This document shows, piece after piece, positions 3,373 to 23,523 of a DNA stretch of 32,247 nt (the first letter of the stretch is position 1; every line of letters starts with the position of its first letter). Made by a program: the position numbers and the translations under genes. The notes beneath the pieces are model-generated. The model was not told where the DNA came from. It ran no database searches and worked only from the letters and a program-made list of their open reading frames with translations. The stretch spans positions 1-32,247 of the forward strand of contig PCWF01000189.1 in assembly GCA_002796165.1 (NCBI GenBank), given 5' to 3'. Source of the DNA: Nitrospinae bacterium CG11_big_fil_rev_8_21_14_0_20_56_8. Lineage in GTDB: Bacteria; Nitrospinota; Nitrospinia; Nitrospinales; VA-1.

Positions 3373-3414
3373 GTGAATTTTCCTTGGGTGAAGGGATGGC
3401 AAAACATAATGTCG

Positions 3415-4422: not shown

Positions 4423-4445
4423 TTTCAGGTTCCCGAAAACGGAGC

Positions 4446-5123: not shown

Positions 5124-5223
5124 AGTGAGTACCGAACGGTTGAACCAGGTTCATGTGGCCGGCGCAGTGTTTCCACCGATGGGATTTTGGTTTCGCGGGT
5201 CCCACACGGGAATTCCGCGGACC

Positions 5224-6219
5224 TTATTCCTTCGGTCGTGACTGCAAGGCGGATTGGATTTCCTGCATAACGGTCACCACATCATGGCCCTGTTTCCCAT
5301 CTGTCAGGGGAACCCGGCGGGTCCGGATGCAGTCAATGAAATGCGAGCACATTCCCTTCAAAGGCTCGTGCTCCTTCAAGACGGGAGAGATGATGTCCCC
5401 ATCCCGCAGATGCAATTGGAACTCCCCGAAGTCGTCATAATCATCGGCGACCGAAATCCCTTTTTTAAACAACTTCACCTTTTCGAGGTTGTCCAGATCG
5501 TTAAAGACCACGCGGGCCCGGCTTCCCACAAGAGTGATGGTTCTTTCCTTGTTGGAATCCTCCCAACTGACATGGATGTTTGCGACCACGTTGTTGGGAT
5601 AGGTCAGGTTGATGAATGCCACGTCCTCTTTTCCTCCCTTGAGATGACAGGCACCGATGGCATGAACCGATTGGGGCGAGGAACCCAGAAAATAATTAAA
5701 GATTGAAATATCGTGGGGCGCAAGATCCCACGCTACGTTAACGTCATCCCGAATCAGTCCCAGATGGGTCCGATTGGCTTTAAGGTAATAGAGTTTGCCC
5801 AGTTCCCCGTCCTCGATCAACTCCTTCACTTTCTGGATTCCTGCGTTGTATAGAAAAATGTGGGCGACCATCAGGATACGGTTTTTTTTCTGAGCGATTC
5901 GGCACAGTTCTTCAGACTCCTGGGCTGTTGTGGCCAGCGGTTTTTCGGCGAGCACATCTTTCCCGGAAAGCAGAAAGGTTTTGGCCAGTTCAAAATGGGT
6001 CGCGGCAGGGGTTACGACGACAACGGCGTTCAGCGTCTCATCGTTGATCAGGTCGTCCATGTTGCTGGTTTTTCTAATATCGGGATAGTTCTTGATGCGG
6101 TCAAATTGTTTGGGGTTTTTATCGCACGCCCACGTCACTTTCACTCCCTCGAGAGCGGCCATGACACGAACGTAATTGGGGCCCCAGTGGCCCAGACCCA
6201 AAATGCCGATGTTCAACAT
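5224..6219 (-). CDS. Gfo/Idh/MocA-family NAD-dependent sugar oxidoreductase (WbpB/GnnA-like role plausible)
   Basis: 331-aa ORF. It has an N-terminal dinucleotide fold (MLNIGILGLGHWGPNY) and the LAEKPLA motif typical of the family. It starts 3 nt after the stop of the aminotransferase gene. Confidence 0.85.
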   Translation of the reverse strand: MLNIGILGLGHWGPNYVRVMAALEGVKVTWACDKNPKQFDRIKNYPDIRKTSNMDDLINDETLNAVVVVTPAATHFELAKTFLLSGKDVLAEKPLATTAQESEELCRIAQKKNRILMVAHIFLYNAGIQKVKELIEDGELGKLYYLKANRTHLGLIRDDVNVAWDLAPHDISIFNYFLGSSPQSVHAIGACHLKGGKEDVAFINLTYPNNVVANIHVSWEDSNKERTITLVGSRARVVFNDLDNLEKVKLFKKGISVADDYDDFGEFQLHLRDGDIISPVLKEHEPLKGMCSHFIDCIRTRRVPLTDGKQGHDVVTVMQEIQSALQSRPKE

Positions 6220-6222
6220 GGC

Positions 6223-7356
6223 TCAACCAAAAAAGTGTTTGATGGTTTGGATCACGCGGTCGATCTGATGGCCGGTCATCTCTGGAAACATGGGCAAGGA
6301 TAATATCTCCTTGCAGGATCTGTCCGTAAAGGGATTGTCGGTTCCCGGGATCTTCAAATGAGAATAAACCCCCTGTGCATAAATGGGGTGGGGGTAATGG
6401 ATTCCGGATTGGATCCCTTCGTCGTTGAGGTGCTTGAGAAGTGCGTCTCTTTGTTGTGTGCGCACCACGTAAAGGTGGAAAACGTGGTTTTCCCGTTCGG
6501 GAATTTGCGGAAGAATCAGGTCTCCAACTCCATGAAGATGGGCGTTGTACGAATGGGCAACTTTTCGTCTCGATTCGTTCCACCCGTCCAGCAGGGGAAG
6601 TTTTATGTTGAGGATGGCGGCCTGGACGGTATCAAGGCGGCTGTTGAATCCCAGAATGTCGTGAACGTATTTTTTTGGGGACCCATAATTCCTGAGGCGG
6701 ATCAAGCGCTCATATAGGGAATCCTCGGAAGTGACTACGGCTCCGCCATCTCCATACGCCCCGAGATTCTTACCCGGATAAAAGGAAAAACATCCCAGGT
6801 TGCCGAAAGTTCCGGTCCGCTTGCCATTCCAGTTGGCGCCATGCGACTGGCATGCGTCTTCGACCACTTTCAAGTTGTGATCCTGCGCGATCTTCATCAG
6901 GGTATCCATGTCCACCGCCCGGCCATACAGGTGAACGGGAATGATGGCACGGGTCCTCGGTGTTATTTTCTCTTCGATTTTTTGGAGGTCCAGGTTGAAT
7001 GTTTTTTCATCGGCGTCCACAAATACGGGAGTGGCTCCGGTGTATGAGATTCCGAGCGCCGTGGCGATGAAGGTGTTTGCGGCGGTGATCACCTCGTCTC
7101 CTTCGCCGATATCGAGAGCCCTGAGGGCCAGGTGGAGGGCGTCGGTACCCGAAGCCACTCCAATGCAGTATTTGGCCCTGCAGTAGGTAGCGAAATGGTT
7201 TTCAAATTCGGTAACCTGGGGCCCGAGTATGAATGAGGTGCTTTCGAAGACGGCTTCGACCTGGAGGCGGACCTGTTCCTTGAGATTCTGGTACTGAGTT
7301 TTCAGGTCGACAAATGGGATGATTGGTTTCACGGTTTTATCAGGAGGCAGGTTCAT
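6223..7356 (-). CDS. DegT/DnrJ/EryC1/StrS-family PLP-dependent sugar aminotransferase
   Basis: 377-aa ORF with the family block GVASGTDALHLALRALDIGEGDEVITAANTFIATA. Its ATG overlaps the stop of the upstream epimerase gene (ATGA, 7353-7356). Confidence 0.9.
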   Translation of the reverse strand: MNLPPDKTVKPIIPFVDLKTQYQNLKEQVRLQVEAVFESTSFILGPQVTEFENHFATYCRAKYCIGVASGTDALHLALRALDIGEGDEVITAANTFIATALGISYTGATPVFVDADEKTFNLDLQKIEEKITPRTRAIIPVHLYGRAVDMDTLMKIAQDHNLKVVEDACQSHGANWNGKRTGTFGNLGCFSFYPGKNLGAYGDGGAVVTSEDSLYERLIRLRNYGSPKKYVHDILGFNSRLDTVQAAILNIKLPLLDGWNESRRKVAHSYNAHLHGVGDLILPQIPERENHVFHLYVVRTQQRDALLKHLNDEGIQSGIHYPHPIYAQGVYSHLKIPGTDNPFTDRSCKEILSLPMFPEMTGHQIDRVIQTIKHFFG

Positions 7357-8437: not shown

Positions 8438-9496
8438 TTAAACCACGGTTTTCTGGATTTCAAAGATTTCCCGAATGATATCGGCGCATTGATACTTGAG
8501 GTCCCATCCGGGGTAGTGGGATTTGAATTTGCCAACGTCGCTGATCCACCAGATGTGGTCTCCCCGGCGGTTTTGCGGAACGTGCTCGTAACGGAGCTTT
8601 TTGCCGACAATCTCCTGGGTCATTTCCACCGCTTCAAGCATGGAGCAGTAGCTGAACCGGGCTCCTCCGATATTGTAAACCTCTCCCGAGCGGGGGGCCT
8701 GAAAAAAGTGGTAGAAAGCGTTAACAAGATCCAGGGAATGGATGTTGTCGCGGACCTGTTTCCCCTTGTACCCGTAAATCTTATAAGGCGTTCCGGAAAG
8801 GCAGGCGCGAACCAGGTAGGAAAGGAATCCGTGAAGTTCGGTTCCGGAATGGCGCGGACCGGTGAGGCAACCGCCCCGGAACGTTCCCGTTTTGAGGTTG
8901 AAGTAGCGGCCGTATTCCTGGGTCATGATGTCCGCTGCGACCTTGGAGGCTCCGAACAGGCTGTGCAGGTTCTGGTCGATGGACATGGTTTCATCGATTC
9001 CCCGGTGCCATTTGTGGTCGGGAGCCAACTCATAGCGGGTCTCCTGTTCCTGAAGGGGGAGAGAGTTGGGCAGGTCGCCGTATACCTTGTTGGTGGAGGT
9101 GAAAATAAAAACGGCTTCGGGGCAATATCTGCGGAAGGATTCGAGAAGTACAAGGGTTCCATTGGCATTCACGCTGAAATCCTTCAGAGGGTCCCGGGCC
9201 GCCCAATCATGCGAGGGTTGGCCCGCCGCGTGGATGATGAGGACCGTTTCCTTGCCATAGGTCCTGAATATGTCTTCGATGGCTTTTTCGTTCCGGATGT
9301 CTATCGAGTGATGCTGGTATCGCTTATATTTTTTTTCGAGGAGAAGGCGGTTCCATTCGGTATTCGCGTCTTTCCCGAAAAACTCCATACGCATGTTGTT
9401 GTCGATACCGACGACGTCATATCCTTTTTCACAAAAGAATCCGGCGGCTTCGGACCCGATGAGGCCCGCGGACCCGGTTATCACCACGACGGACAA
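8438..9496 (-). CDS. Extended SDR, second Tyv-like paralog with Phe at the expected catalytic Tyr position
   Basis: 352-aa ORF with a TTG start at 9496 and AAGGGAG 9 nt upstream. Motifs are [32 protein letters not shown] and [13 protein letters not shown]. Where Tyv-like SDRs have HSPYGxSK, this ORF reads HSLFGASK (residue 181, codon at 8954-8956). Confidence 0.8.
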
Positions 9497-9550
9497 GGTT
9501 TAAATCTCCCTTTGTTTCAGGATTCAAGGATGGAATGGAAAACCGGGCCT

Positions 9551-10579
9551 TTAGCCGACATATCTCTTGTCGGTCACTTCGGGAATTTCTGAAGAAGCTT
9601 CCAGGCCTACGCCTTGGGCGCGCAATGTTTCAATTTCACCCTTGATCCAGAAGTAGGTTTTTTCAAGACCGGTGTTTAGGGAAATGGAGGGCCTCCAGCC
9701 CAGGACTTTTTGGATCAGGGAATTGTCGCTGTTTCGCCCGCGGACTCCCAACGGGCCTTCGATGTACTTTTTGGTCAGATGCTTTTTTTCGAAGGACATG
9801 GCGATATCGGCAAGGTGATTGATTTCCACCAACTCGTCACTTCCGAGGTTCAGAGGATGCGGATAATCCCCCCGCATGATCTTGAGGGTCCCCTCGACAC
9901 AGTCATCGATAAACATGAAGCTCCTCTGTTGTTTTCCATCTCCCCAGATCTCAATTTCTCCTTTGGAGGCGGTCAGTATCACTTTCCGGCACATGGCGGC
10001 GGGAGCTTTTTCCCGTCCCCCGCGCCAAGTCCCATTGGGGCCATATACATTGTGATACCGGGCCACCCGGGTGACGAGGCCATAATCCTCACGAAAATAC
10101 TGGCATAGAAGTTCCGAGAAGAGTTTTTCCCACCCATATCCCGCTTCGGGCATAGCGGGGTATGCCATGTCTTCGCTTAAGGCCGGGTTGTTCAAGTCCT
10201 TCTGCAATTCCGTGTTGTAAGCGCAAGCGCTACTGGAGTAAAAAAAACGACGGGCCTGATATTTTCGCGCGGCTTCCAGCACATTGGTGGAGATGAGAAC
10301 GCTGTCGCGCATGATCAGGGCCCGGTAATTTTCGATGAACCCCATCCCACCCATATTGGCGGCAAGATTATAAACCTCGTCAAATTGGCCGCACGAACGG
10401 AAAATAGCCTCGGTTTCCTCCTTATAACGCAGGTCTACATTGAAAAATCGGTCGGCGGGGCTCCGTTCAAATTCCGGGTATTTCCAGTCGGCGGCGATGA
10501 CGGTTTCCCCGTCCGCTTTCAGTTTTTTTACCAGACAATGGCCGATAAAACCCCCAGCCCCGGTAACGAGAATCAGCAT
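9551..10579 (-). CDS. gme: GDP-mannose 3,5-epimerase-like SDR
   Basis: 342-aa ORF with ATG at 10579 and AAGGA upstream. It shares blocks with plant and bacterial GME as I remember them: TGAGGFIG, ADWK, NLAANMGGMGFI, SSSACAY, GYGWEKL, RYHNVYGPNGTWRGGREKAPAAMCRK, WGDGKQQRSFMFIDDCVEG, GVRGRNSDN and YFWIK. These were not aligned by software. Confidence 0.85.
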   Translation of the reverse strand: MLILVTGAGGFIGHCLVKKLKADGETVIAADWKYPEFERSPADRFFNVDLRYKEETEAIFRSCGQFDEVYNLAANMGGMGFIENYRALIMRDSVLISTNVLEAARKYQARRFFYSSSACAYNTELQKDLNNPALSEDMAYPAMPEAGYGWEKLFSELLCQYFREDYGLVTRVARYHNVYGPNGTWRGGREKAPAAMCRKVILTASKGEIEIWGDGKQQRSFMFIDDCVEGTLKIMRGDYPHPLNLGSDELVEINHLADIAMSFEKKHLTKKYIEGPLGVRGRNSDNSLIQKVLGWRPSISLNTGLEKTYFWIKGEIETLRAQGVGLEASSEIPEVTDKRYVG

Positions 10580-10745
10580 GGTTATCCTTTAAACGAGGAT
10601 GACAGAAGGGTTGATTTTTAAAAGAAACTGCAAGATTGGAACCTGACGTAAATTACATTTTTCGAACGGGAGCTTCGTTTGCGATTTCGGGTCCAAACCA
10701 ATCCATTCCGCGGCTGGATTCAGGGGAAGGAAAGGGCCCCCCAAG

Positions 10746-10775
10746 CTTATAATCTCATTTCGAAATATAAATCAA
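10746..10775 (-). promoter_or_regulatory. Candidate sigma70-type promoter for the 10579->520 operon (TTGATT-N18-TATAAG on minus strand)
   Basis: The plus strand has aatcaa at 10770-10775 and cttata at 10746-10751, with an 18-nt spacer. This places the site about 160 nt upstream of the GME ATG. The call rests on sequence pattern only. Confidence 0.3.
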
Positions 10776-10785
10776 AAAACTTGAG

Positions 10786-10862
10786 GGTAAGGTATCCTCC
10801 AGCTTTTACCGAAAAGGAGAACTGGGACGGGTAAGGGCCGTATTCGGTGGAACACGGTAAGG
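10786..10862. promoter_or_regulatory. Three direct copies of GGTAAGG between the two divergent promoter candidates
   Basis: Exact heptamers lie at 10786-10792, 10830-10836 and 10856-10862. The first two are extended to GGGTAAGG. Confidence 0.3.
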
Positions 10863-10945
10863 ATTCGGGGCGAAAAACGGGCCAATTTCAACCGTTCCCA
10901 AGTTAACCAAAGCATAAAAAAAAATCAACATTTATATTGTTCGTT

Positions 10946-10975
10946 TTGATTTCAAAGGGAAAATTATTTTATGAT
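10946..10975 (+). promoter_or_regulatory. Candidate sigma70-type promoter for the 11095 radical SAM gene (TTGATT-N18-TATGAT)
   Basis: TTGATT lies at 10946-10951 and TATGAT at 10970-10975, within an AT-rich stretch about 120 nt upstream of the ATG. Confidence 0.3.
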
Positions 10976-11094
10976 TAAAAGCATTTACCACAAGCCGTAT
11001 GCGTGGCAATTTTAATGTGTTATAGTTCCAGTAGGAACCGGGTTTCTTTGTCGACGACTATTTGTTTTCCCTTTTACAAGGAAGATAATTCACA

Positions 11095-12501
11095 ATGAGA
11101 GTTCTGCTTGTTCAACCGTTCAAAGATGCCGGATTGTCCAACCAATCCTGGCCCCCCATAGGTTTGGGTTATCTCGCGACTTCGGTCCGGAACGCCGGAC
11201 ACGAGGTTCAGATCCTGGATTGTCTGAAGGAATGCCGGGATAATGGGGATTTTGTCCGGGCCGTTGAAAAATTCGACCCTCAGGTGGTGGGGTACAATCT
11301 GTATTCCATTGCGGTGCCCCTTGTTCAGGAGATGCTGGAAGCCCTCCATTTGTCTCGGCCGAAAGTCATCAACATTTTCGGTGGTCCCCATGTGTCTTCT
11401 CTTCCGGATCAGGTTCTCGATGTGATCCCCCATGTCGATTATGCGATTCAAGGAGAGGGCGAGGTTCCTTTGCCCATGCTTCTCAAGGCATTGGAATCGG
11501 GGGTTCACACTTTTGGTGAAATTCCGGGCCTGATTTACCGGGAGGAAGGGATGATAAAGAAAAATCCATCCCATTTTCAAAAGAATATCGAAGAATACGG
11601 ATTTCCCGCCTGGGATCTTATTAAACCCCAGGAATATTTTCAATTTTTTGGAATTGGACCCGACACCGCACCCATATTTTTGTCAAGAGGGTGTCCATTC
11701 CCTTGTACGTTTTGCGCGGCCAGCGTGGTGACCGGGCGGTCTCTTCGATGGCGGGGTTTTGATCATATATTCGAGGAGTTCCGGCTTTTACAAAACGAGT
11801 ATGGAATCAAGCGGTTTGTTCTCGAAGACGAAGGGACGGGAGTTGCCGAAAAATTCCTCACCAAATTCTGCCGTCGGGTCAAGGAGGAAAGTTTCAAGGC
11901 GGCTTTTGCCATGGGGGTCGGGATGCGGCTTGACCAGTATTCTGAAGAGCTTCTCCTTGAGATGCGGGATGCCGGATTTGAAAAGAGGATCGTGCTTGGT
12001 ATTGAGTCGGGAAGCGAGCGGATACTCAATAAAATGAAAAAAGACAGCGATATCGATTTGATTCGGGAGAAAGTAGCTCTTATGGACCGGATGGGATTCG
12101 AACCCAACGGGTATTTTATCGTCGGATTCCCCAGCGAAACCCGGGAAGAAATCGAGAAGACCATTCAACTGGCTTTGAGTCTTCCGATCCGGGAAGCCAG
12201 TTTCACCGCGTTTCAGCCGCTTCCCGCGACACCTGCGACGGATGAATTGATCGCAAACGGTGAACTCCCTCCCGATTACGACTTCAGCAAACTGGTTCAG
12301 AACGGGATTGCATATGCGCCCAAAGGAATGACGGTGGAAGAGTTGGAACGCATCCGGAAAAGGGCCATCCTCCGATTTTATTTGCGGCCCAAAATCCTTT
12401 TCAGTTATTTCAAGTCCTTCCGAACCCTCAAATATGCGTTCTGCAAATTTCTTGCGATTTTCACCAAGGATAACGTCATTCCGGAACCCAATTGGTCCTA
12501 G
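11095..12501 (+). CDS. B12-binding-domain radical SAM enzyme (class B-like)
   Basis: 468-aa ORF. The N-terminal Rossmann-like module is VLLVQPF...PPIGLGYLAT...IFGGPHVSSLP...AIQGEGE. The radical SAM cluster motif is RGCPFPCTFC (CxxxCxxC). AAGGAAG lies upstream. Confidence 0.85.
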   Translation: MRVLLVQPFKDAGLSNQSWPPIGLGYLATSVRNAGHEVQILDCLKECRDNGDFVRAVEKFDPQVVGYNLYSIAVPLVQEMLEALHLSRPKVINIFGGPHVSSLPDQVLDVIPHVDYAIQGEGEVPLPMLLKALESGVHTFGEIPGLIYREEGMIKKNPSHFQKNIEEYGFPAWDLIKPQEYFQFFGIGPDTAPIFLSRGCPFPCTFCAASVVTGRSLRWRGFDHIFEEFRLLQNEYGIKRFVLEDEGTGVAEKFLTKFCRRVKEESFKAAFAMGVGMRLDQYSEELLLEMRDAGFEKRIVLGIESGSERILNKMKKDSDIDLIREKVALMDRMGFEPNGYFIVGFPSETREEIEKTIQLALSLPIREASFTAFQPLPATPATDELIANGELPPDYDFSKLVQNGIAYAPKGMTVEELERIRKRAILRFYLRPKILFSYFKSFRTLKYAFCKFLAIFTKDNVIPEPNWS

Positions 12502-12607
12502 CAAACCTGCCCCTTGTCAAGAATGTGTCCTTGCGGATGGAGTCTCTCCCTGGAAGGGGATAGGGATATAATACCGGGTGTCGATTGGTGGGGCTGAGGT
12601 TACCTGA

Positions 12608-13546
12608 ATGAGCCATCTTTTCGATCGCCTTGGATATGTTACATTATTCGCTCTCTGTGCCTTCACTCTTTTGAGCCTGGTCACCGCCTGGAATTGGGTA
12701 TCTGACCTGACCAGCCATTTTCGGGTTCAATATCTGGTCCTTTTGCTTCTTATCTCGATTCTGTTTCTGAGCCGCAAAAGACCGGTTCCCGCCGTGATGT
12801 CCCTCCTTTTTGCCGGGATTAACCTGTTTCCCCTGCTCCCCTTTTTGTTCGGCGCCGCCCCTGCCATGGCGGGAAATCCGGCGCACCGGGTTCTCATGGT
12901 CAATTTGCATCACTATGAAAATGATCAGTATGGGAAAGTCCGGCAACTGATTCGGACCCAGGAACCCGAGGTGATTCTTTTCCTGGAAGTCACCGAGAAG
13001 TGGACCGAAATGCTAAGAGGGGAGTTGGGGGGCTATCCCTACTCTAAAGTAGCACCCAGAGAGGATGCCATGGGAATCGGGCTGTTCAGCCGATTGGAAT
13101 TAAAAGACCTCGAGATCGGCCCGATTGGCGAAACTAACATTCCCTCGGTATTGGGAAGGATGAAGGTCGGGTCGAAGTGGGTCCGGGTGATCGGGACCCA
13201 TCTGATGTCCCCATTGACTCCCCGGTTTACCGAAGATCGGAACAGGCAATTGGGGGCTCTTCAGGAGGTTTTAAACGGGGAGAAGGGATTGAAGATGGTC
13301 TTGGGAGATTTTAACCTGACACCGTGGTCCTCGCTGATGAAAAACTTTGGCCGATCCACCGGGCTGATGGACACCCGCATTGGTCAAGGAATCAAACCCA
13401 CCTGGCCCAGCATGTTCCCTCCCTTGTGGATTCCCATTGAACATTGCATGGTGTCCCCGGAAATCGGTATCCATAAATTCCAAATCGGTCCCGAAGTGGG
13501 GTCGGACCATCTCCCTGTGATTCTGGATTTTTCCATTGCTTCCTGA
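12608..13546 (+). CDS. Membrane-anchored endonuclease/exonuclease/phosphatase (EEP) family protein
   Basis: 312-aa ORF with GAGG 8 nt upstream of the ATG. It has about three N-terminal hydrophobic helices. EEP signatures are VLGDFNLTPWS and the near-C-terminal GSDHLPV. Confidence 0.8.
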   Translation: MSHLFDRLGYVTLFALCAFTLLSLVTAWNWVSDLTSHFRVQYLVLLLLISILFLSRKRPVPAVMSLLFAGINLFPLLPFLFGAAPAMAGNPAHRVLMVNLHHYENDQYGKVRQLIRTQEPEVILFLEVTEKWTEMLRGELGGYPYSKVAPREDAMGIGLFSRLELKDLEIGPIGETNIPSVLGRMKVGSKWVRVIGTHLMSPLTPRFTEDRNRQLGALQEVLNGEKGLKMVLGDFNLTPWSSLMKNFGRSTGLMDTRIGQGIKPTWPSMFPPLWIPIEHCMVSPEIGIHKFQIGPEVGSDHLPVILDFSIAS

Positions 13547-13549
13547 GGT

Positions 13550-14083
13550 TCAGTTTTTATGCCGGCACTCGAATTTCTTGTCGGTGATCCAGGTGATCTC
13601 AAGGTAAGCGGGCAAGCGGGTTTCTTTGTTGAGCAGGGCGGAATTGATCTGTTGGTCCGTCAACCCAACCGCATCCGTCAAATCGGCCCCTTTAAGCTCC
13701 GCCTCCTCAAGATTGACGTTGGCAAGATTGGCGCAGGTAAGATCTGCCAGGGAGAGGTCGGCATCGGCCAGGTTGGCGCCGGAGAGATTGGCTCCGGAAA
13801 GGTTGGCGGATCGGATGTCCGCTTCATTCATATCGGCTCCGGAAAGGTTGGCCTCCCTTAGGTTGGATTTGCTGAGCTTGGATTTGCTCAAGTCGGCTTT
13901 TTCCAGATTGGCCCGGCTCAGGTTGGCGAAGAACAGATTGGCGTAACTGAGGTCTGCTTCGTTGAGGTTTCCTCCGCTGAAGTCGGCGTGGTCAAGGTTT
14001 CCGCCGCTCAGGTTGGCTTTGACGAGGTTGTGTTTGGATTTTTCGGCTTGTTCCCGTTCGGCTTTTCTTAATTCTTCCGTCAT
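13550..14083 (-). CDS. Pentapeptide-repeat protein
   Basis: 177-aa ORF. Residues about 20-135 are uninterrupted A(D/N)LxX pentads (ANLSGGNLDHADFSGGNLNEADLSYANLFFANLSRANLEKADL...). No signal peptide is visible. The plus-strand ORFs here are mirror artefacts of the repeat. Confidence 0.85.
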   Translation of the reverse strand: MTEELRKAEREQAEKSKHNLVKANLSGGNLDHADFSGGNLNEADLSYANLFFANLSRANLEKADLSKSKLSKSNLREANLSGADMNEADIRSANLSGANLSGANLADADLSLADLTCANLANVNLEEAELKGADLTDAVGLTDQQINSALLNKETRLPAYLEITWITDKKFECRHKN

Positions 14084-14125
14084 AAAATCGATGTCGATGA
14101 CTATGGAAATCCGAAAGTTTAAAAA

Positions 14126-15025
14126 TCAAAGAGGACTGGTGAGGGACTGGGCTTTCATGAAACCCAAAACATTTTCCTCAATTTCTTTTTTTGCCGTCAT
14201 TCCAATAACGAAGGAATCCACATAATTCACGCTGGATGCAAATGCGAGGGCTTTCTGCGGGGAATGTCCCAGTTTCCCTGCGCCAAAAAGTTTCATGGTC
14301 AGAATTCCTTTTCCCCCCCGATGCATTTCCTGAAGCATCTTTATGGTTTGGTTTCGTAGAGGTTCGTCCGGTTTATGGGGTTCAATCATTTTTGATACCG
14401 AGGGCAGGGCCGCCTTTGGAATTAAAAGCTTGGCCATTTCCACGGCCAAGGGAATGCTGGCTACCTTGGAAAGAAAATCTTCCTGGTAAGAATCCATGCA
14501 GACTCCATCATAATTCAGCCGACCCATTACCACATCGAATTCCTCCATTCGAGAGCCGGTTTCCATTGCCCCAATTCCGTGACAGGAAAATCCGACGGCG
14601 CGCAAAAGGCCTTTCCTTTTTAAATCGATTAAGGCGTTTAGGGCGCCTTTTCTGAGAAAAAAATCGAGAGCGTTTCTCATCCCATGGAGCAAAAACACGT
14701 CGACATAGCCGGTTTTCAATTCCTTAAGTGTGGATTCCACTTCATGGACGGCGGTCTTCCACGAGCATGCGCTCGTTTTGGAAACGAGGACAATATCTTC
14801 TCTTTTTACGCTTTTCAGCGCTTCCCTGAAATGGGGGTAAGTTCGGTAAGAGAAGGCGGTGTCCCAGAGATTGATCCCCAAGTCATAAGCATACAGCAAG
14901 AGATCGCTGAACTCCCTGACGGTCATGTCGCATTGGAGGTTGGTTCCGGAAAACCCAGTTGTCCCCGACCCTATACCCAGCCGGGAAACCAGAATGTCCG
15001 TTTTACCTAAAGGGGATCGGTTCAT
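14126..15025 (-). CDS. Aldo/keto reductase family oxidoreductase
   Basis: 299-aa ORF. The AKR N-terminus is LGKTDILVSRLGIGS. Candidate tetrad residues sit in WDTAFSY (Asp, Tyr), LVSKT (Lys) and FLLHGM (His). AAAGG lies upstream of the ATG. Confidence 0.85.
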   Translation of the reverse strand: MNRSPLGKTDILVSRLGIGSGTTGFSGTNLQCDMTVREFSDLLLYAYDLGINLWDTAFSYRTYPHFREALKSVKREDIVLVSKTSACSWKTAVHEVESTLKELKTGYVDVFLLHGMRNALDFFLRKGALNALIDLKRKGLLRAVGFSCHGIGAMETGSRMEEFDVVMGRLNYDGVCMDSYQEDFLSKVASIPLAVEMAKLLIPKAALPSVSKMIEPHKPDEPLRNQTIKMLQEMHRGGKGILTMKLFGAGKLGHSPQKALAFASSVNYVDSFVIGMTAKKEIEENVLGFMKAQSLTSPL

Positions 15026-15082
15026 CTCCGCCTTTCTTCGTTGCCCCTGCGCTGGGAATTAAGGGGAATCCTCCGGGTTTCT

Positions 15083-16567
15083 TCAACCCGTTTGCGGAAA
15101 ATATTGGAGCCCTTTTCTGGCCATCCGGGAAAGAAACCATTTAACGCCATTGAAGGCCGCCCCGGGTTTATAAAACGAGTTATAAGCCAGCCACTTCACT
15201 TTTTCCACGGTGGTCACTTTTTGCAGGGAAAGAAGGTCCAGCTCGTCTCTTAATGCAAGGACTTTTTCCGGCGCCACCAGGTCGGAATAAACTTTTTGCC
15301 CATGCTCCACGCCTTCCGCGATTTCCTTTTTCAATTCCTTATAGTAATCGGGGTCCACCAGGCCTTTTTCCACGCACAATTCGTATAACGGGGTTCCGGG
15401 GTAGGGGATCATGCAGGAAACCTGAAACCGATAGAGTTTCTTAATGTTTTTTACGATGAAGGCTCGGGTTTCAAGCATTTCTTCATAGGTTTCGGAAGGG
15501 GTGCCAATGATGAAGGTACCGAGAACATGGATTCCCGCCTCACAGGTCAGGTCGATGGCGCGTTGGTGATCTTCGGCGGTTATTCCTTTGCCCTTGATCA
15601 AGGTCAGCATGCGTTGGTTTGCACTTTCGAACCCATAGTCGATTTCGCAACAACCCGCCTGCTTCATCAGTTTCAAAAGCGGACGGTCGCTCTCTCTGAC
15701 AAGATTGCTCCGAATCTGGACATCCCATTTAACTTTCTTTTGCAAACCTCTGCGGAGGATTTCCTCGCTCAGTTCCTCGGTGTGCGATTTTTTAACGAAA
15801 AAAATATCATCGGTAAAAAAGAACCACCGGGCGTTATATTTTTCGACGGCCTCTTCCATTTCATCGACAATGTATTGGGGTGAATGGAATCTCATGCGCC
15901 CATCGGTGGAAAAATTCACGCAACAGAAGATGCAGGTATAAGGACATCCCCTCGAACCTGCAATGGTCGTGACACCATAGGAGTTCATCCCACGGATGAC
16001 GAAATACCGTTTATTGTAGAAATCGTAATTTAACAAAGCCCGGTCGGGATGGGGAATGGTGTCCAGATCGCTGATCAGTTTCCGGGGTTGGGTTTGAATG
16101 ACCTTGTCCTGATCTTTGAAAGCCAAGCCCTCAATGGAGGACAGGTATTTTGTATTTAATTGTCTGCCATTTTCAATAAACCCATCAACCAGCTCTTTGA
16201 AGGTTGCTTCTCCTTCGCCCGTCACGACAACATCGAAACAGGAATTTTTCAGTAATTGTTCCCATTGAACCGCCGCATGGGCTCCCCCGCAAACCATGAC
16301 CAGATCCCGGCCCGCCCGGGAACGCAATTCGCGGGCCAGATCATACAGAGCGACCACCTGACTGCTCAGGCTGGTGAACCCCACAATATCCGGGTTGAAG
16401 GCCAGGATTTCTCCGATGGGGTCCTTGGACCAGCAGACATCCACCAATTTGACTTCATACCGGTACTTTCCAAACTGCTTCAAATAAGAACTTAAATAGG
16501 TCAGGTTCAATGGGGGAAAGGAGGGGATATTTATGGGGTTAAACAGGCAAATTCTGATTTCGCTCAT
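15083..16567 (-). CDS. B12-binding-domain radical SAM enzyme (class B-like), second copy
   Basis: The ORF track extends to a TTG at 16639. I prefer the in-frame ATG at 16567 (MSEIRICLFNP...) because family members start directly with the Rossmann strand. Motifs are VCGGAHAA...VVTGEGE and SRGCPYTCIFC (CxxxCxxC). No clear SD precedes either start, so the start is uncertain. Confidence 0.8.
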   Translation of the reverse strand: MSEIRICLFNPINIPSFPPLNLTYLSSYLKQFGKYRYEVKLVDVCWSKDPIGEILAFNPDIVGFTSLSSQVVALYDLARELRSRAGRDLVMVCGGAHAAVQWEQLLKNSCFDVVVTGEGEATFKELVDGFIENGRQLNTKYLSSIEGLAFKDQDKVIQTQPRKLISDLDTIPHPDRALLNYDFYNKRYFVIRGMNSYGVTTIAGSRGCPYTCIFCCVNFSTDGRMRFHSPQYIVDEMEEAVEKYNARWFFFTDDIFFVKKSHTEELSEEILRRGLQKKVKWDVQIRSNLVRESDRPLLKLMKQAGCCEIDYGFESANQRMLTLIKGKGITAEDHQRAIDLTCEAGIHVLGTFIIGTPSETYEEMLETRAFIVKNIKKLYRFQVSCMIPYPGTPLYELCVEKGLVDPDYYKELKKEIAEGVEHGQKVYSDLVAPEKVLALRDELDLLSLQKVTTVEKVKWLAYNSFYKPGAAFNGVKWFLSRMARKGLQYFPQTG

Positions 16568-16970
16568 AATTTTTGCCGCCGATGTTTTGAGGTTAGACAA
16601 ATGGTCATGAAGCCCCGAGTCTTGAACCGATACATACAAAAATTGCAGTTTTGGAAGATCCCTGAAGAGAAAGGAAACCCCGGATTAATTAATTCAATAT
16701 AAAACCAAACGGACTCTTCAGGGGGCTAAAGGTATTGAGTTATGATTCGCGTACGTTTTCAGCCCCTGCGGCAAAGCCATAGGGCCGGAGAATGGCGATT
16801 TGAAAAGAGGCCTAAGAATCTTGCAGGAGAATGAATTCCCCCCTTAGTTTAATTATCGTTCAAAATCCCCTTTTCCTAAACTATTTATTAAACGGCAGAC
16901 TACCTTTATTTCCCAAAACTTAAGGTCTTTAGCTTAATTCATACAGGGATAAAGTGCCAATATTTTTTCC

Positions 16971-16986
16971 TCTCCAATTTGGAGCA
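16971..16986. promoter_or_regulatory. Palindromic motif TCTCCAATTTGGAGCA (copy 1)
   Basis: CTCCAA/TTGGAG inverted half-sites with 1 nt between them. It lies in the 693-bp spacer upstream of the SPASM radical SAM gene. A near-identical copy is at 18378-18395. Confidence 0.25.
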
Positions 16987-17082
16987 TTTCCCAATGATCC
17001 ACGGTCGATTCCGATCCGTAAACCCGGGATTGCAAACTTTCTCCGTTAAAACTTATTTGAGTTGGGCGAGGGGATATTTTTA

Positions 17083-17112
17083 TTGATTCTCTGATGATTC
17101 AAACGGTAAACT
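17083..17112 (+). promoter_or_regulatory. Candidate promoter TTGATT-N18-TAAACT upstream of 17333 gene
   Basis: TTGATT lies at 17083-17088 and TAAACT at 17107-17112. The architecture matches the two candidates in the 10.6-11.1 kb spacer. The -10 element is weak. Confidence 0.2.
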
Positions 17113-17332
17113 TTTACTGCCTAGCGCAAGAGTCGATCCGGCCCTTGGTCCCTGGTTTTTTCCGGCTTGGAAAATCGTGGGGTAAACGAGGTGATTTTGG
17201 GGTCAATTGCCTCGCCCTTTTGACCGTTAAGCCACTCAGTGAAAATAATCGCTCATTGGTTATTGAGACTTCTAGACCACCGGTCAATTTCCACCTGATC
17301 CAGTTCCAAACCCAGCTTAAAGGCATGATCGC

Positions 17333-18358
17333 ATGAATCCTCAAAAGGTTTATTTTAAGTATCTTGGGATTCGCCTGGTCAGGCGGATTTTGGAAAATCC
17401 GATATTTTCCCAAAATCCTTATTTCAGAGATTTTGTAAGGAAATTATCCCTGAGGAAAGCCAAAAGGCTTCAGAAAAGAACCTTTGACGGTTCCTTTGCC
17501 CCTTGGGCGGTTGAAATCGAACTCACCAATGGATGTAACATCGAATGTGTCTTTTGCCCGAATCCCGAGCATGTCCGCCCCAAGGGGATGATGTCCCTGG
17601 AAACGTTCCAACGGATCGCAAGTGAAATTAAAAAATTAAACGTTCCTCATATTATCATCAGCGGATTTGGCGAGCCCACTCTGGACAAAAATCTTGTAAG
17701 CAAACTTGAACATTTTAAGACCATAGGAATTTCAAGCGAGGTGATGCTCGTCAGCAACGGGACCATATTCAATCCTGAAATCCTGAAGGAAATCTGCGAC
17801 CGTGAACTTGTGGATATTATCAGCATCAGCGTGGATGCCGGGGATGAGGAATCGTACGTTGAAATCCACAAAAAGGAGGGATATGCAAAGATCCGGGCAA
17901 GTGTGGAATATATCGCCGAGTTGAAACTGAAGAAGGGTTCTTCCAAGCCTAAGGTGGATTTGCGCTATAAGGATTTTTATATGAACAAAGGCCAAATCCA
18001 CAAATTCATCGAAACGTTTTCGTCACATTCCGACAAGATGTCGATTTACGCCAATATATGCACCTGGCCCGGGGCGGATTCCAAAATCAAGGCAGTCGAT
18101 AAAGAAACCCTGATCAAAATTGTATGTCCCAGCCTGTATCAGGGCATGAGAATCAACTGGAATGGCGATGTTGTTATTTGTCCGCAGGATTACGAAGCCC
18201 ACGCCATCTGCGGCAATATCCTCAAGGAGTCGATGTTGGAAATTTGGAATGGCGAGGTTCTAAGCAAATACCGGAAAATGCATGAAAACTACCAATTTAA
18301 TGAAATCCCGGTCTGTAAAGATTGCGATATCAACACCCACCTCTTGGTTCCCCTTTAA
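17333..18358 (+). CDS. Radical SAM enzyme with Cys-rich C-terminal SPASM/twitch-like extension
   Basis: 341-aa ORF. The cluster motif is TNGCNIECVFC (CxxxCxxC). The C-terminal region has CPSLYQGMRINWNGDVVIC (CX12GX4C), then ICGN and VCKDC just before the stop. This is only part of the full seven-Cys SPASM pattern. Confidence 0.8.
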   Translation: MNPQKVYFKYLGIRLVRRILENPIFSQNPYFRDFVRKLSLRKAKRLQKRTFDGSFAPWAVEIELTNGCNIECVFCPNPEHVRPKGMMSLETFQRIASEIKKLNVPHIIISGFGEPTLDKNLVSKLEHFKTIGISSEVMLVSNGTIFNPEILKEICDRELVDIISISVDAGDEESYVEIHKKEGYAKIRASVEYIAELKLKKGSSKPKVDLRYKDFYMNKGQIHKFIETFSSHSDKMSIYANICTWPGADSKIKAVDKETLIKIVCPSLYQGMRINWNGDVVICPQDYEAHAICGNILKESMLEIWNGEVLSKYRKMHENYQFNEIPVCKDCDINTHLLVPL

Positions 18359-18377
18359 TCTTCCCGCGCTGGACCCG

Positions 18378-18395
18378 TCTCCAATTTTTGGAGCA
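18378..18395. promoter_or_regulatory. Palindromic motif TCTCCAATTTTTGGAGCA (copy 2)
   Basis: It lies 20 nt after the SPASM gene stop. A 6-bp CTCCAA/TTGGAG stem with a TTT loop is possible, but no U-run follows. Confidence 0.25.
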
Positions 18396-18551
18396 GGGCA
18401 GGGCTCTTTTGTACGGGCGGATTTCTAATAATCCGTTTAAAACCAATTTGTTTCCTGTGTTGTTGCTTGCGCGCCGGGCAGGGGATGAAAGATCCATTTG
18501 TGTTGACTTTCAGGCGAAAATGGGTAAATTGTTCTCGAAAAGGGGGGAACG

Positions 18552-19433
18552 ATGAAAATTTTATTATTGGGTGCGACCGGGTACTTGGGGGGCCAAGTAG
18601 TTGCCAATTTGGGCTTTGCGGACCGAGTCCGGTGTCTAGTCCGGAAAACCAGCAACGTTTCTTCCCTCACGGCACCCAATATTGAGTTGTTTTATGGTGA
18701 TTTAACGGATAAGGATTCCCTCGACCCGGCGATGGAAGGGATCGATATCGTCGTCCATACCGTCAAAGCGTCGACGATGGACAAGGAGGAGCAGTACAAG
18801 GTAAATGTTACTGGAACGCAGAATGTTCTCGATTTATGCCTCAGACATAATATTAAAAAATTGATTTACATCAGCGCGGTCGGGGTGATCTACAAAGAGG
18901 AACACCATAATGATTACATTAAGTCAAAAATCCAGGCTGAGGACCGAGTAATCAAAGCCGGCCTGAATTCCATCATTCTCCGTTCTCCCCTGATTTATAA
19001 CCAGAACAGTTTGCTGGTTAAAATCGTCAAATTGTTTTCCCGATTTCCGGTTCTGATTCTTCCTGAAACCATGTTCGATTACCGCTTTCAACAGCCCGTG
19101 TATATTGACGATATGGTTCAAACCCTGGTGAAGGCGATTTTAACTGACGATTTCAAAAAAAATCATCCCTATTTTGTGACCGGGCCCAGCAGTCCCCGCC
19201 TTTCAGAATTGATCGACTGGTGTACCATTTATCCCTTCAGACCCTTGAAAATCAGAATGCCCTTGGCGTGCTTAAAACTTTTCCAGGGTATTTTACGTAA
19301 CCCCTCGATTCAAAATTTTCTTTCATCTCAGAAGGAGTTTTATCAATTTGATTTGAAAGAATGTAGGGAAGATTTCGATTACCGTCCGAGGGAAATTTGC
19401 GAGGTAATCACCGGGACAGCAAAAATCACCTGA
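18552..19433 (+). CDS. NAD(P)-binding SDR-family protein (atypical/NmrA-like epimerase-reductase)
   Basis: 293-aa ORF with a strong G-rich SD (AAAGGGGGGAACG ATG). Motifs are MKILLLGATGYLGGQVV and YIKSK (YxxxK). Confidence 0.8.
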   Translation: MKILLLGATGYLGGQVVANLGFADRVRCLVRKTSNVSSLTAPNIELFYGDLTDKDSLDPAMEGIDIVVHTVKASTMDKEEQYKVNVTGTQNVLDLCLRHNIKKLIYISAVGVIYKEEHHNDYIKSKIQAEDRVIKAGLNSIILRSPLIYNQNSLLVKIVKLFSRFPVLILPETMFDYRFQQPVYIDDMVQTLVKAILTDDFKKNHPYFVTGPSSPRLSELIDWCTIYPFRPLKIRMPLACLKLFQGILRNPSIQNFLSSQKEFYQFDLKECREDFDYRPREICEVITGTAKIT

Positions 19434-21167: not shown

Positions 21168-22253
21168 ATGGAAAACAACGTTACCCCTTTGGTCAGTATA
21201 GTAAACGTTACCTGGAATGGCAGGAGTCTTCTTGAAAAACATCTTCCCAGCCTGGCCGGTCTCCATTATTCCAATTTTGAAGTGATTATTGTTGATAATG
21301 GGTCCACGGATGGAAGCGTGGAATTCGTCCGCGAACATTATCCTCGGTTCAAAATCGTTGCCAATGAAATCAACCTGGGTACCGCCGAGGGGAGCAATGT
21401 GGCCATCCCCGTTGCCCGGGGTAAGTATATTTTCTGGGTCAGTAACGATATGGAATTCGATCCCGATATCGTCGATCATCTTGTGGCGCGTTGCGAATCG
21501 GATCCCCGGATCGGGATTTGCACGGTTAAAATGAGGAGAATAAAGGACGAGCAGTTGGTCGATGAGATCGATAGCGTGGGGGCCGATCTGGACATTTTCG
21601 GGTTTCCGGCCTCGCGGGGAATCGACGAAGAGGACCGGGGCCAATTGGACTATTCGACGAACGTCTGTTTTTCCTTTGGCGGCGCCATGATGATCCGGAA
21701 AGACGTTCTTGAAATTACGGGAGGTTATGACCCCTCCTTTCTCACCCTTGCAGACGATATCGACCTTTCCTGGAGAGTCTGGTTGGCTGGTTACCGAGTC
21801 GTGGTGGAACCGAAGGCGTTTCTCTATCACCGGGTTAGTGCGACTTTGGGCAAGACGCATAATCGGGCGCAGAAGCGGTTTATCTCGGAGCGGAACACTT
21901 TGCGCACGTTGTTAAAGAACTATTCCACCGGGGTCCTCTTTTTTATCCTTCCGGTTTATTTCCTTCTTTTGATAATGGAAATGACGTTTTTCCTTGCTGT
22001 CGGGCGTCCTCAGATTGCGGTTTCCGGCATAAGGGCAATTCGATGGAACCTTGACCGATTGAAAGAAACCCTGCTCCTCCGAAAAGAGGTTCAGTCTTTC
22101 CGCAAGATTGGGGACGCGAAGATCCTCTCCATGCGCAAAAAATTCCCGGAGAAATTCAGGATCTTCCTCGATTATCTGAAATACCGCAATACCCCTCGCT
22201 GGAAAGGATATATGGGAACCGGAATCGGCGCCCAATCTTTGAAAAATGGCTGA
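21168..22253 (+). CDS. Glycosyltransferase family 2 (WbbL/rhamnosyltransferase-like), C-terminal hydrophobic segment
   Basis: 361-aa ORF with VSIVNVTWNGRSLLEKHLPSL...FEVIIVDNGSTDGS, DDIDLSWRVWLAGYRVV, and then a hydrophobic VLFFILPVYFLLLIMEMTFFLAV. Confidence 0.85.
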   Translation: MENNVTPLVSIVNVTWNGRSLLEKHLPSLAGLHYSNFEVIIVDNGSTDGSVEFVREHYPRFKIVANEINLGTAEGSNVAIPVARGKYIFWVSNDMEFDPDIVDHLVARCESDPRIGICTVKMRRIKDEQLVDEIDSVGADLDIFGFPASRGIDEEDRGQLDYSTNVCFSFGGAMMIRKDVLEITGGYDPSFLTLADDIDLSWRVWLAGYRVVVEPKAFLYHRVSATLGKTHNRAQKRFISERNTLRTLLKNYSTGVLFFILPVYFLLLIMEMTFFLAVGRPQIAVSGIRAIRWNLDRLKETLLLRKEVQSFRKIGDAKILSMRKKFPEKFRIFLDYLKYRNTPRWKGYMGTGIGAQSLKNG

Positions 22254-23523
22254 CCTCCTGCAGATTCTGAAATCAAAAACCGTTTTGGTCGTGGGGCAAC
22301 TCAAGACCAGCCGGACGGAAACTCTTGAAGAGTATTTAAAGGGGAAGGTCGGGGGCCTTTACGTATTTGGATTTTCCAGCCCGATGTCCAGGAAAGGGTT
22401 CGGGCGTCTCACGCAATACCATTCCGCAGAAAAAGTCCGGGAAAAACCGCTGAGTATTTTCTCCACTCCCAATCATAAGGGAACCACCGGCCCTGCGGTT
22501 CTGATTTCATTTTTTCTGACGGCGCTCCAGTTTTTTCGATGTTTTTTCAAGCTTCCTTCCCGGCCCGAGGTTTTTATCGGCGTGGCCACCTATTCTACGG
22601 TGCTTGGGATTCTCCTGAAAAAATTCAATTGTGTGGATCGTGTTATTTTTTACTGTCTTGATTATTCCGTTCCTTCCACGGCTCATTGGTTCGCAAATAT
22701 GTTTATCCATGCTCTGCGGCGGGTGGATGCCTGGGTGATCAAGAATTCCGATATGGTCTGGGACATTACTTCCCGAATTGGCGAGGCCAGGAAAAATTTT
22801 GATCGAATCCCTCTGGAATCGTATAACCCGATTGTGGTCCCCTTGGGATACGGAGAGGGGATAGAAAGATTTCGCCCGTTTGAGGAGAGGGAGAGGTGGA
22901 CCCTGGGGTTTGTGGGCACCCTTTCGTCCAACCAGGGGTTGGAGCTGATTGTGGATTCTCTTCCGGAGTTGAAATTAAAAATTCCTCAAATCAAATTGAG
23001 GATCATTGGGGACGGTCCGGCGTGGGAAAATATTCAGATGATGGTTCGGGAAAGGGGGGTTCAGGACTGCGTTGTTTTTCACGGATTTATACAGGACGAT
23101 GAAGAGGTTTATGACCTTCTGTCCCATTGTATGATCGGGTTGGCGGTGTGGACGGGAGGGGCGGATGATAATTCTCATTTTGCGGACCCTGGGAAGCCGA
23201 AACTTTATGCCCTCCTTGGGCTTCCGATTGTTATCACGGATGCCCCTCAAGTGTCCGAAGTGATAAAAGAAACCAATGCGGGAAGGGTGATCCGGTATGA
23301 TCGGAAGGCCTTTGTCAATGCGGTGGAGGAAATCCTCCTTTCAACGGAGGAACTGGGAAAATGCCTGGAGGGGCTCAGGTCATTTAAAAGCTACTGCAGA
23401 GCGGAACAGATTTTTGACGAGGCGACAACGGAGACCATGAAACGTTGGAAACAATTTACCGATAAACCTGCTTCCCCGAAATTTACAGGATTTTCCCTCC
23501 AGTCGGATTTAAACAGAAGATAA
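22246..23523 (+). CDS. Glycosyltransferase, GT-B fold (GT4-like)
   Basis: 425-aa ORF. Its ATG overlaps the upstream GT2 stop by 8 nt (ATGGCTGA). The C-terminal Rossmann half is LGFVGTLSSNQGLELIV...LRIIGDGP...VVFHGFI...GKPKLYALLGLPIV. Confidence 0.75.
   Translation: MADLLQILKSKTVLVVGQLKTSRTETLEEYLKGKVGGLYVFGFSSPMSRKGFGRLTQYHSAEKVREKPLSIFSTPNHKGTTGPAVLISFFLTALQFFRCFFKLPSRPEVFIGVATYSTVLGILLKKFNCVDRVIFYCLDYSVPSTAHWFANMFIHALRRVDAWVIKNSDMVWDITSRIGEARKNFDRIPLESYNPIVVPLGYGEGIERFRPFEERERWTLGFVGTLSSNQGLELIVDSLPELKLKIPQIKLRIIGDGPAWENIQMMVRERGVQDCVVFHGFIQDDEEVYDLLSHCMIGLAVWTGGADDNSHFADPGKPKLYALLGLPIVITDAPQVSEVIKETNAGRVIRYDRKAFVNAVEEILLSTEELGKCLEGLRSFKSYCRAEQIFDEATTETMKRWKQFTDKPASPKFTGFSLQSDLNRR

Follow-up and report, generated by a model that had tools for sequence, protein, structure and literature searches.

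Three radical SAM genes in a putative cell-envelope glycan locus of a Nitrospinae bacterium

What do three oxygen-sensitive radical S-adenosylmethionine (SAM) enzymes do inside a glycan locus? The question is raised by a stretch of 32,247 nucleotides (hereafter the window) from Nitrospinae bacterium CG11_big_fil_rev_8_21_14_0_20_56_8 (contig PCWF01000189.1, assembly GCA_002796165.1). In it, genes for two radical SAM enzymes of class B architecture (rSAM1 and rSAM2) and for a third with a twitch domain (the twitch enzyme) are interleaved with genes for an EEP phosphoesterase (EEP), a pentapeptide-repeat protein (PRP), an aldo/keto reductase (AKR) and a short-chain dehydrogenase/reductase (SDR). 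Radical SAM tailoring of sugars is familiar from aminoglycosides (BtrN, GenK, AprD4) and lipid head groups (HpnJ, Cds). Our literature searches turned up no publication that connects cobalamin-type radical SAM enzymes with surface-polysaccharide or GT-C-type glycan loci. The initial annotation had read the seven genes as a tailoring cassette. Synteny kept radical tailoring associated with a glycan plausible, but pointed to a different and larger functional unit that takes in a membrane family 2 glycosyltransferase (GT2_b), a family 4 glycosyltransferase (GT4_b) and a polytopic membrane protein of 617 residues (TM617). We see about equal weight for and against the view that the window represents an uncharacterised kind of locus for cell-envelope glycan (or glycolipid), one that recurs in other organisms and here holds three radical SAM genes.

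Genes that recur with the radical SAM genes

Neighbourhoods of divergent homologs were collected and every window protein was compared with them, which yielded 12 related loci from other organisms. Orthologs of rSAM2 with 50-62% identity were located in glycan loci L012, L014, L015/L016 (from a Patescibacteria assembly), L177, L178 and L179, and homologs of GT2_b and/or GT4_b lay beside rSAM2 in all six of these contexts. A glycan locus was the setting in five of the six independent contexts of rSAM2 orthologs, which upheld the glycan-locus setting read initially from the flanking genes. AKR orthologs (50-57% identity) adjoined rSAM2 in L012, L177 and L178, where rSAM1-like paralogs (41-45%) were found a few genes beyond; rSAM2, AKR and rSAM1 lay within ~5.5 kb in four loci, the window included. 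The homolog of the twitch enzyme in L008 adjoined homologs of GT2_b (68%) and GT4_b (46%), those in L009 and L011 were directly upstream of TM617 homologs (33%), and the one in L179 was situated between the gene of a radical SAM enzyme with a B12-binding domain (B12-rSAM) and the rSAM2 ortholog. GT2_b accompanied the radical SAM genes most consistently, with identities of 68% in L008, 62% in L014, 43% in L015, 40% in L180 and 32-33% in L012, L177 and L179. GT4_b was 46-47% identical to its counterparts in L008 and L014 and 29-37% to those in L012, L015, L177, L178 and L179, and TM617 was 24-26% identical to proteins in L012, L177 and L178.

The remaining members of the block behaved differently. 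EEP, PRP, an 80-residue open reading frame (ORF) upstream of the twitch gene (orf80), a 1480-residue protein and a 251-residue protein were without homologs in the 12 related loci, and SDR gave only generic matches there (21-27% identity). The expectation that all seven genes travel together was therefore not borne out, as only rSAM2, AKR, rSAM1 and the twitch gene recurred. By comparison of gene neighbourhoods, EEP, PRP and SDR are lineage-specific additions and no part of a conserved core; the conserved unit is, on the same comparison, not the seven-gene block but a GT2 with a GT4, a GT-C-like protein, rSAM2 with AKR, rSAM1 and the twitch enzyme. Since arrangements with several radical SAM genes recur in independent loci (L179, L178, L012/L177 and L180), we do not regard the clustering as chance.

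When genomes and metagenomes were scanned with the rSAM2 alignment, the matches listed were almost only paralogs of 31-38% identity, plus two orthologs (L017 and L097); these scans thus supply background figures rather than a census of orthologs. The 94 paralog loci taken from these matches were each at least 12 kb long. At least two B12-rSAM genes were present in 30 of them, glycan-type genes in 32 and both in 19, and homologs of AKR, EEP, PRP and TM617 in none of the 94. Separately, a 106-kb contig (L180, positions 1-21569; JGI 3300009538) carried at least seven B12-rSAM genes and two SPASM genes. These were interleaved with three GT2 genes, a DUF2079 gene (14964-16745; the family of the membrane protein at the end of the window), and genes for a PMT_2-like protein of 688 residues, an amino-oxidase-like flavoprotein and a Wzy_C protein; the rSAM2 relative in this locus was 43% identical.

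Class I methyltransferases were common in the related loci, where they usually belong to the conserved unit, and a separate gene of this kind adjoined the rSAM2 ortholog in L012 and L178; none was detected in the window. In L177 (10001-12361), an rSAM2 ortholog (62% identity) and a class I SAM methyltransferase domain are naturally fused in one protein (P0030). The methyltransferase-rich loci and this fusion are consistent with a heavily methylated product.

The radical SAM enzymes and their accessory proteins

The three CxxxCxxC enzymes were found where the initial annotation had placed them, and searches with the Radical_SAM, B12-binding and SPASM models, which it had advised, returned the expected domains. 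rSAM1 carries the motifs RGCPFPCTFC and GGPHVS...QGEGE and matched Pfam B12-binding (PF02310, E 1.3e-23) and Radical_SAM (PF04055, E 1.7e-18). rSAM2 carries RGCPYTCIFC and GGAHAA...TGEGE and matched Radical_SAM (PF04055, E 1.1e-21) and B12-binding (PF02310, E 8.1e-18). Both therefore have the architecture of class B enzymes, as read initially: an N-terminal B12-binding Rossmann domain and a CX3CX2C radical SAM core. None of the characterised class B equivalogs (BchE, HpnJ, HpnR, MgmA, AprD4, PhpK, BzaD, ApyD and the ladderane-type lipid radical SAM family) reached its NCBIfam cutoff. The best match of rSAM1 was BchE (179 bits versus a cutoff of 481), and rSAM2 scored 180 versus 481 with BchE, 157 versus 577 with HpnJ and 92 versus 500 with AprD4; other scores below cutoff were those with the MgmA family (120 versus 360) and TIGR04072 (107 versus 360). 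With every equivalog score this far below its cutoff, the earlier failure to assign the gene combination to a known pathway was borne out.

Comparison with solved structures gave a similarly broad picture. The nearest solved structure of rSAM1 was the glutamine C-methylase MgmA (9ccb, E 2.7e-23), and the best PDB sequence match of rSAM2 was AprD4 (E 1.8e-20). AprD4 has class B architecture yet is not known to use cobalamin. The AF2 model of rSAM2 (pLDDT 87.6) resembled TsrM, AprD4, MgmA, CysS, OxsB and TokK about equally in fold (E 1e-16 to 1e-22). The modelled fold confirms class B architecture but does not distinguish a methylase from a dehydratase or isomerase. A role in anti-phage defence, as in prokaryotic viperins, was considered and rejected: the PADLOC matches were partial and covered the radical SAM core region only (pVip ~50 bits over residues 60-198; PDC-M51A 46 and 19 bits).

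The twitch enzyme (motif NGCNIECVFC) matched Pfam Radical_SAM (E 3.5e-21) and SPASM (E 2.7e-14). The cysteine tail noted at first (CX12GX4C...CX2C) is present, but "partial SPASM" was the wrong description of it. In an alignment of 10 family members, C68/C72/C75 and C265/C283/C328/C331 were invariant, and the CX2CX5CX3C motif of a second SPASM cluster was absent. From this cysteine pattern, the tail is a true twitch domain with a predicted single auxiliary [4Fe-4S] site held by four cysteines. BtrN, to which the enzyme had been likened from the start, was its top match both by sequence in the PDB (E 5e-9) and by fold (Foldseek, 4m7t, E 1.5e-13, TM 0.76 on the target; model pLDDT 86.5). The carbohydrate-acting enzymes DesII and BlsE ranked among the next-best matches, and SkfB, SuiB and CteB were also among the fold matches. 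The auxiliary cluster of BtrN has four cysteine ligands and serves a two-electron oxidation of a cyclitol alcohol, and two auxiliary clusters are usual for SPASM peptide maturases (PMC9012708, from which the definition of the twitch domain is taken). An exhaustive search for relatives of the twitch enzyme found about six representative clusters better than 1e-50 and 109 at E ≤ 1e-30, and so the family is small yet part of a continuum.

A peptide substrate was assessed at the same gene. No RiPP (ribosomally synthesised and post-translationally modified peptide) recognition element (RRE) was found in the twitch model, whose residues 1-45 form helices only, and the enzyme had no PqqD-type Pfam match. 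orf80 had no homolog in L008, L009, L011 or L179, and gene calls upstream of the twitch homologs in L008, L010 and L179 included no small ORF; for L009 and L011, the sequence available on that side was limited to ~140 bases. A conserved precursor gene, an RRE and a second auxiliary cluster were thus all lacking. Because orf80 is not conserved and the twitch enzyme is without an RRE, RiPP maturation through orf80 was rejected.

The interleaved genes encode the proteins named initially, as Pfam matches and, for EEP, three hydrophobic segments attest. These segments are N-terminal and were read directly from the sequence; EEP gave only a weak VanJ match in NCBIfam and no PDB sequence match. In L012 (15738-16205) and L177 (15669-16187), a PgpA-family lipid phosphatase is encoded after the rSAM1-like gene and before the GT-C-like one. 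EEP, which follows rSAM1 in the window, may be a non-orthologous replacement of the unrelated PgpA. The D-Y-K-H tetrad of AKR is readable in its sequence, and its solved-structure neighbours are generic. SDR has GxxGxxG and YxxxK, scored 77 bits with HpnA versus a cutoff of 368, and had 3wj7, NDUFA9 and NSDHL as its PDB neighbours.

Layout of the window and the flanking glycan genes

The features of the block and of the genes downstream are collected in Table 1. The block is organised in three units (rSAM1 and EEP; rSAM2, AKR and PRP on the opposite strand; the twitch gene and SDR), two of them divergent. This geometry had been described correctly at first, but not the length of the divergent spacer: because rSAM2 orthologs align from the ATG at 16567 and not from the TTG at 16639, the spacer is 765 bp long instead of 693.

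Table 1. Coordinates of the block, its divergent spacer and the downstream genes (window positions)
Feature	Position	Strand	Description
rSAM1	11095-12501	+	468 aa, class B radical SAM enzyme with B12-binding domain
EEP	12608-13546	+	312 aa, membrane-anchored phosphoesterase; Pfam Exo_endo_phos E 2e-18
PRP	13550-14083	-	177 aa, pentapeptide-repeat protein; Pfam Pentapeptide E 4.3e-32; last gene of the rSAM2 unit
AKR	14126-15025	-	299 aa, aldo/keto reductase; Pfam Aldo_ket_red E 1e-21
rSAM2	15083-16567	-	494 aa, class B radical SAM enzyme
Spacer between rSAM2 and twitch gene	16568-17332		765 bp; takes in the non-conserved 80-aa ORF 17094-17336
Twitch enzyme	17333-18358	+	341 aa, BtrN-like radical SAM enzyme; Pfam Radical_SAM and SPASM
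SDR	18552-19433	+	293 aa, extended SDR (3beta-HSD / NDUFA9 / HpnA-like); Pfam 3Beta_HSD, NAD_binding_10
GT2_b	21168-22253	+	Membrane GT2 with GT21-like hits; Pfam matches include Glyco_transf_21
GT4_b	22246-23523	+	GT4 glycosyltransferase (Pfam); frame overlaps GT2_b by 8 bases
1480-aa ORF	23509-27951	-	No family hit
TM617	28504-30357	+	617 aa, polytopic membrane protein, probably GT-C-like; homologs in related loci, weak GT-C_AftD matches of relatives
DUF2079 protein	31477-32247	+	Truncated polytopic membrane protein, frame open to the window end; Pfam DUF2079 E 2.2e-21

orf80, which the initial annotation did not mention, lies on the plus strand and was placed there by gene callers in metagenome annotations; it overlaps the start of the twitch gene by ATGA, and a promoter-like site (17220-17249) falls within it. 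It has no homolog across the related loci and no family match, and is probably not a gene. The spacers contained no cobalamin riboswitch or other RNA at Rfam gathering thresholds, the single match being a spurious snoRNA (E 0.15). Promoter and terminator matches were at chance level, and no meaningful repeats were found. Upstream of rSAM1, a divergent spacer of 515 bp (10580-11094) separates this gene from an epimerase gene; it contains an ORF of 41 residues from metagenome calls (~10806-10931, minus strand), and neither repeats nor an RNA family were found in it. The GC content at third codon positions (GC3) ranged from 0.53 to 0.67 per gene, a weak mosaic signal only, and near-identical contigs were present in several metagenomes.

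Scans of the window ORFs against Pfam and curated families identified the flanks of the block as a glycan locus. Upstream, on the minus strand, are genes for a GT4, a carbamoyltransferase and a GT2, together with those for a NeuD/PglD-type acetyltransferase, which scored above its curated cutoff, a GFO-family dehydrogenase that resembles UDP-GlcNAc 3-dehydrogenase, and a DegT aminotransferase; three SDR epimerase/dehydratases are also encoded there. The dehydrogenase, aminotransferase and acetyltransferase form a WbpB/E/D-like trio, which suggests a 2,3-diacetamido-type sugar, and the carbamoyltransferase nearby suggests O-carbamoylation of the glycan; these genes lie at 4446-7356 and 1753-3402, both on the minus strand. 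The longest-ORF calls of the upstream GT2 (3415-4677, minus strand) and the acetyltransferase (4446-5123, minus strand) overlap by 232 bases. These long starts are probably wrong, because in metagenome gene calls the GT2 begins later (335 residues) and the acetyltransferase has 207 residues.

Downstream of the block, a nucleotide-sugar dehydrogenase (again above its curated cutoff) precedes GT2_b, GT4_b, the 1480-residue protein, TM617 and the truncated DUF2079 protein. The 1480-residue protein had no Pfam match and no homolog in any related locus, and showed no relation to TM617 or to the large LamG or GT-C-like proteins encoded in the other loci; hydrophobic stretches appeared near its C-terminus in pairwise alignments. 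TM617 itself matched nothing in Pfam or in a profile search of PDB sequences, and a word-index homolog search retrieved the query alone; its relatives matched Pfam GT-C_AftD weakly (E 1e-4, one match described as faint, and E 0.027). A literature search for DUF6311 gave nothing.

Proposed tailoring of a carrier-linked sugar, its rivals and known systems

We propose, at even odds, that in this locus a sugar bound to a carrier, probably a lipid, undergoes radical tailoring in the cytoplasm before a GT-C-like protein transfers it. What is observed are domain identities, the cysteine pattern, fold matches and synteny; from these we infer the substrate, all reaction types and the sequence in which they occur. 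The reactions suggested initially (C-methylation, branching, oxidation followed by reduction) are likewise candidates. The sugar would be modified in the cytoplasm while attached to its carrier, most likely a lipid or lipid phosphate loaded by the GT2. The twitch enzyme would abstract a hydrogen atom and turn a secondary alcohol into a ketone, its single four-cysteine auxiliary cluster serving as electron sink, as in BtrN. NAD(P)H reductases (AKR and, in this window, also SDR) might then reduce the keto intermediates, which would result in epimerisation, or in deoxygenation instead if rSAM2 behaves like the diol dehydratase AprD4. The class B enzymes could methylate or rearrange unactivated sugar carbons, by C-methylation of the GenK type or ring contraction of the HpnJ/Cds type, and the GT-C-like proteins would export the finished unit and transfer it outside the membrane. 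A lipid-linked substrate is suggested by PgpA in L012 and L177, by the AftD matches of the TM617 relatives, by the GT21-like character of GT2_b, by the 3beta-HSD/NDUFA9/HpnA-like SDR and by the context of rSAM2 in L017. Precedents for such chemistry include AprD4/AprD3, a radical SAM enzyme and reductase that act as a deoxygenation pair (PMC5461906), and HpnI/HpnJ and Cds, in which a radical SAM enzyme remodels a sugar installed on a lipid by a glycosyltransferase (PMC13459092).

Several points weigh against this proposal. The rSAM2 ortholog in L017, from a Planctomycetia metagenome-assembled genome, is 52% identical and lies outside a glycan locus, flanked by MTHFR and, in the other direction, by IspH/LytB and a polyprenyl synthetase (8920-13364); an isoprenoid-linked substrate may be hinted at here. 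Because many of the related contigs derive from a single set of sequencing runs (SRR22387933-SRR22388352), the lineages count as independent only in part. In fold, rSAM2 is as close to methylases (TsrM, MgmA, TokK, CysS) as to the non-methylating AprD4 and OxsB. The role of GT2_b as a transferase of sugar to lipid phosphate is putative, since its solved-structure neighbours are only generic GT2 enzymes, and the GT-C assignment of TM617 is weak, since only its relatives have matches and those are weak. The analogy of AKR with AprD3 is functional only.

The same evidence can be read in other ways. The radical SAM enzymes might modify the lipid part, either an isoprenoid/polyprenyl carrier or a membrane-lipid tail, by methylation or cross-linking, with GT2_b and GT4_b making a glycolipid head group; the module would then serve membrane-lipid synthesis instead of the tailoring of a glycan. 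The placement of the L017 ortholog next to IspH and polyprenyl synthetase, with MTHFR opposite, fits such a role, as do PgpA in L012/L177, the Glyco_transf_21 match of GT2_b, the lipid-associated best matches of SDR (HpnA, SdmB, OleD, NSDHL) and the well-known class B lipid methylases such as HpnP and HpnR (PMC13459092). However, neither the window nor most related loci yielded lipid-synthesis genes (squalene-hopene cyclase, fatty-acid or ether-lipid genes), the neighbours that stay constant encode nucleotide-sugar enzymes, glycosyltransferases and GT-C-like proteins, the nearest match of the twitch enzyme is the carbohydrate-acting BtrN, and the HpnJ, HpnR and ladderane-type models scored far below their cutoffs; we consider modification of the lipid itself unlikely. 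We give clearly less credence to a mere juxtaposition, in which the seven genes would be a mosaic within a hypervariable glycan locus and the three radical SAM enzymes would belong to unrelated processes. Such a mosaic would account for EEP, PRP and orf80 having no counterpart in related loci, for the generic matches of SDR, for the spread of GC3, for the division into three transcription units set apart by long spacers, for chance-level promoter and terminator matches, and for an rSAM2 ortholog outside glycan loci in L017. It would not account for rSAM2, AKR and rSAM1 lying within ~5.5 kb in four loci, for the adjacency of the twitch and rSAM2 genes in L179, or for three more loci in which twitch genes adjoin GT2_b/GT4_b or TM617 homologs; chance hardly explains linkage that repeats in this way at 35-68% identity.

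Modification of a peptide or protein appears least credible, whether as RiPP maturation with orf80 as the precursor or as MgmA/Mmp10-like methylation of a surface protein (the 1480-residue protein here, LamG proteins elsewhere). The overlap of orf80 with the start of the twitch gene would suit the former, and the relation of rSAM1 to the protein methylase MgmA the latter; the RiPP enzyme ApyD scored 143 bits, SkfB, SuiB and CteB occur among the twitch fold matches, and genes for large secreted or LamG proteins border related loci. Yet orf80 is conserved upstream of no twitch homolog, the N-terminus of the twitch enzyme is helical only and has neither an RRE nor a PqqD-type match, and the enzyme has one auxiliary cluster instead of the two usual in SPASM peptide maturases (PMC9012708). 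In addition, related loci encode no homolog of the 1480-residue protein, and every model of a RiPP or protein-methylase family fell short of its cutoff.

Returning to the tailoring of a carrier-linked sugar, a wider generalisation is possible but doubtful: several phyla of uncultured bacteria (Nitrospinae, Patescibacteria and others) may share a so far unrecognised class of radical-SAM-rich envelope-glycan loci in which lipid-linked sugars undergo C-methylation, deoxygenation or ring contraction by class B and twitch radical SAM enzymes and are then transferred to the surface by GT-C-like proteins. If so, radical chemistry would be routine in primary envelope-glycan assembly, beyond the pathways for antibiotics and for hopanoid or glycerol dialkyl glycerol tetraether (GDGT) head groups, and would yield C-alkylated or carbocyclic sugars that bacterial surface polymers are not known to contain. 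Should the module modify envelope sugars, new C-methyl, deoxy or carbocyclic sugar structures would be predicted in uncultured lineages, hundreds of unannotated B12-rSAM paralogs would gain functional handles, and GT2, GT4, rSAM2, AKR, rSAM1 and the twitch enzyme would form a compact set for heterologous reconstitution.

Among known systems, BtrN, the 2-deoxy-scyllo-inosamine dehydrogenase of butirosin synthesis, shares with the twitch enzyme a CX3CX2C core, a C-terminal twitch domain and one four-cysteine auxiliary cluster (spacing CX17C...CX2C), and acts on a carbohydrate-like small molecule. The two are only ~16% identical; the window enzyme has a conserved helical N-terminal extension of ~55 residues and an insert between core and twitch domain, and is encoded in an envelope-glycan locus instead of an aminoglycoside cluster. 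In the HpnI/HpnK/HpnJ pathway and with calditol synthase Cds, a GT2 likewise glycosylates a lipid and the sugar is then remodelled by a radical SAM enzyme; HpnJ was the second-best curated family of rSAM2. Squalene-hopene cyclase, HpnH and HpnK are nevertheless absent from the window, where the partners are GT4, a GT-C-like protein, AKR and nucleotide-sugar enzymes. Membership in the hopanoid hpn system itself was rejected on scores of 157 versus 577 (HpnJ), 77 versus 368 (HpnA) and 25 versus 310 (HpnI), and neither the cyclase nor HpnH was found among the scanned window ORFs.

AprD4/AprD3, which removes the C3' oxygen in apramycin and tobramycin synthesis, also pairs a radical SAM enzyme of class B architecture with an NAD(P)H reductase acting on a sugar. 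AprD4 was among the best fold matches of rSAM2 (TM 0.73), and a reductase gene, AKR, is conserved beside rSAM2; against this likeness stand the AprD4 family score (92 bits versus 500) and the equally good fold matches with TsrM and MgmA. The class B C-methyltransferases (GenK, GenD1, Fom3, TokK and CysS) share with rSAM1 and rSAM2 the B12-binding Rossmann domain and the radical SAM core, and TokK and CysS were significant fold matches of rSAM2. Neither window enzyme belongs at the sequence level to a characterised methylase family, and their setting is envelope-glycan assembly instead of an antibiotic cluster.

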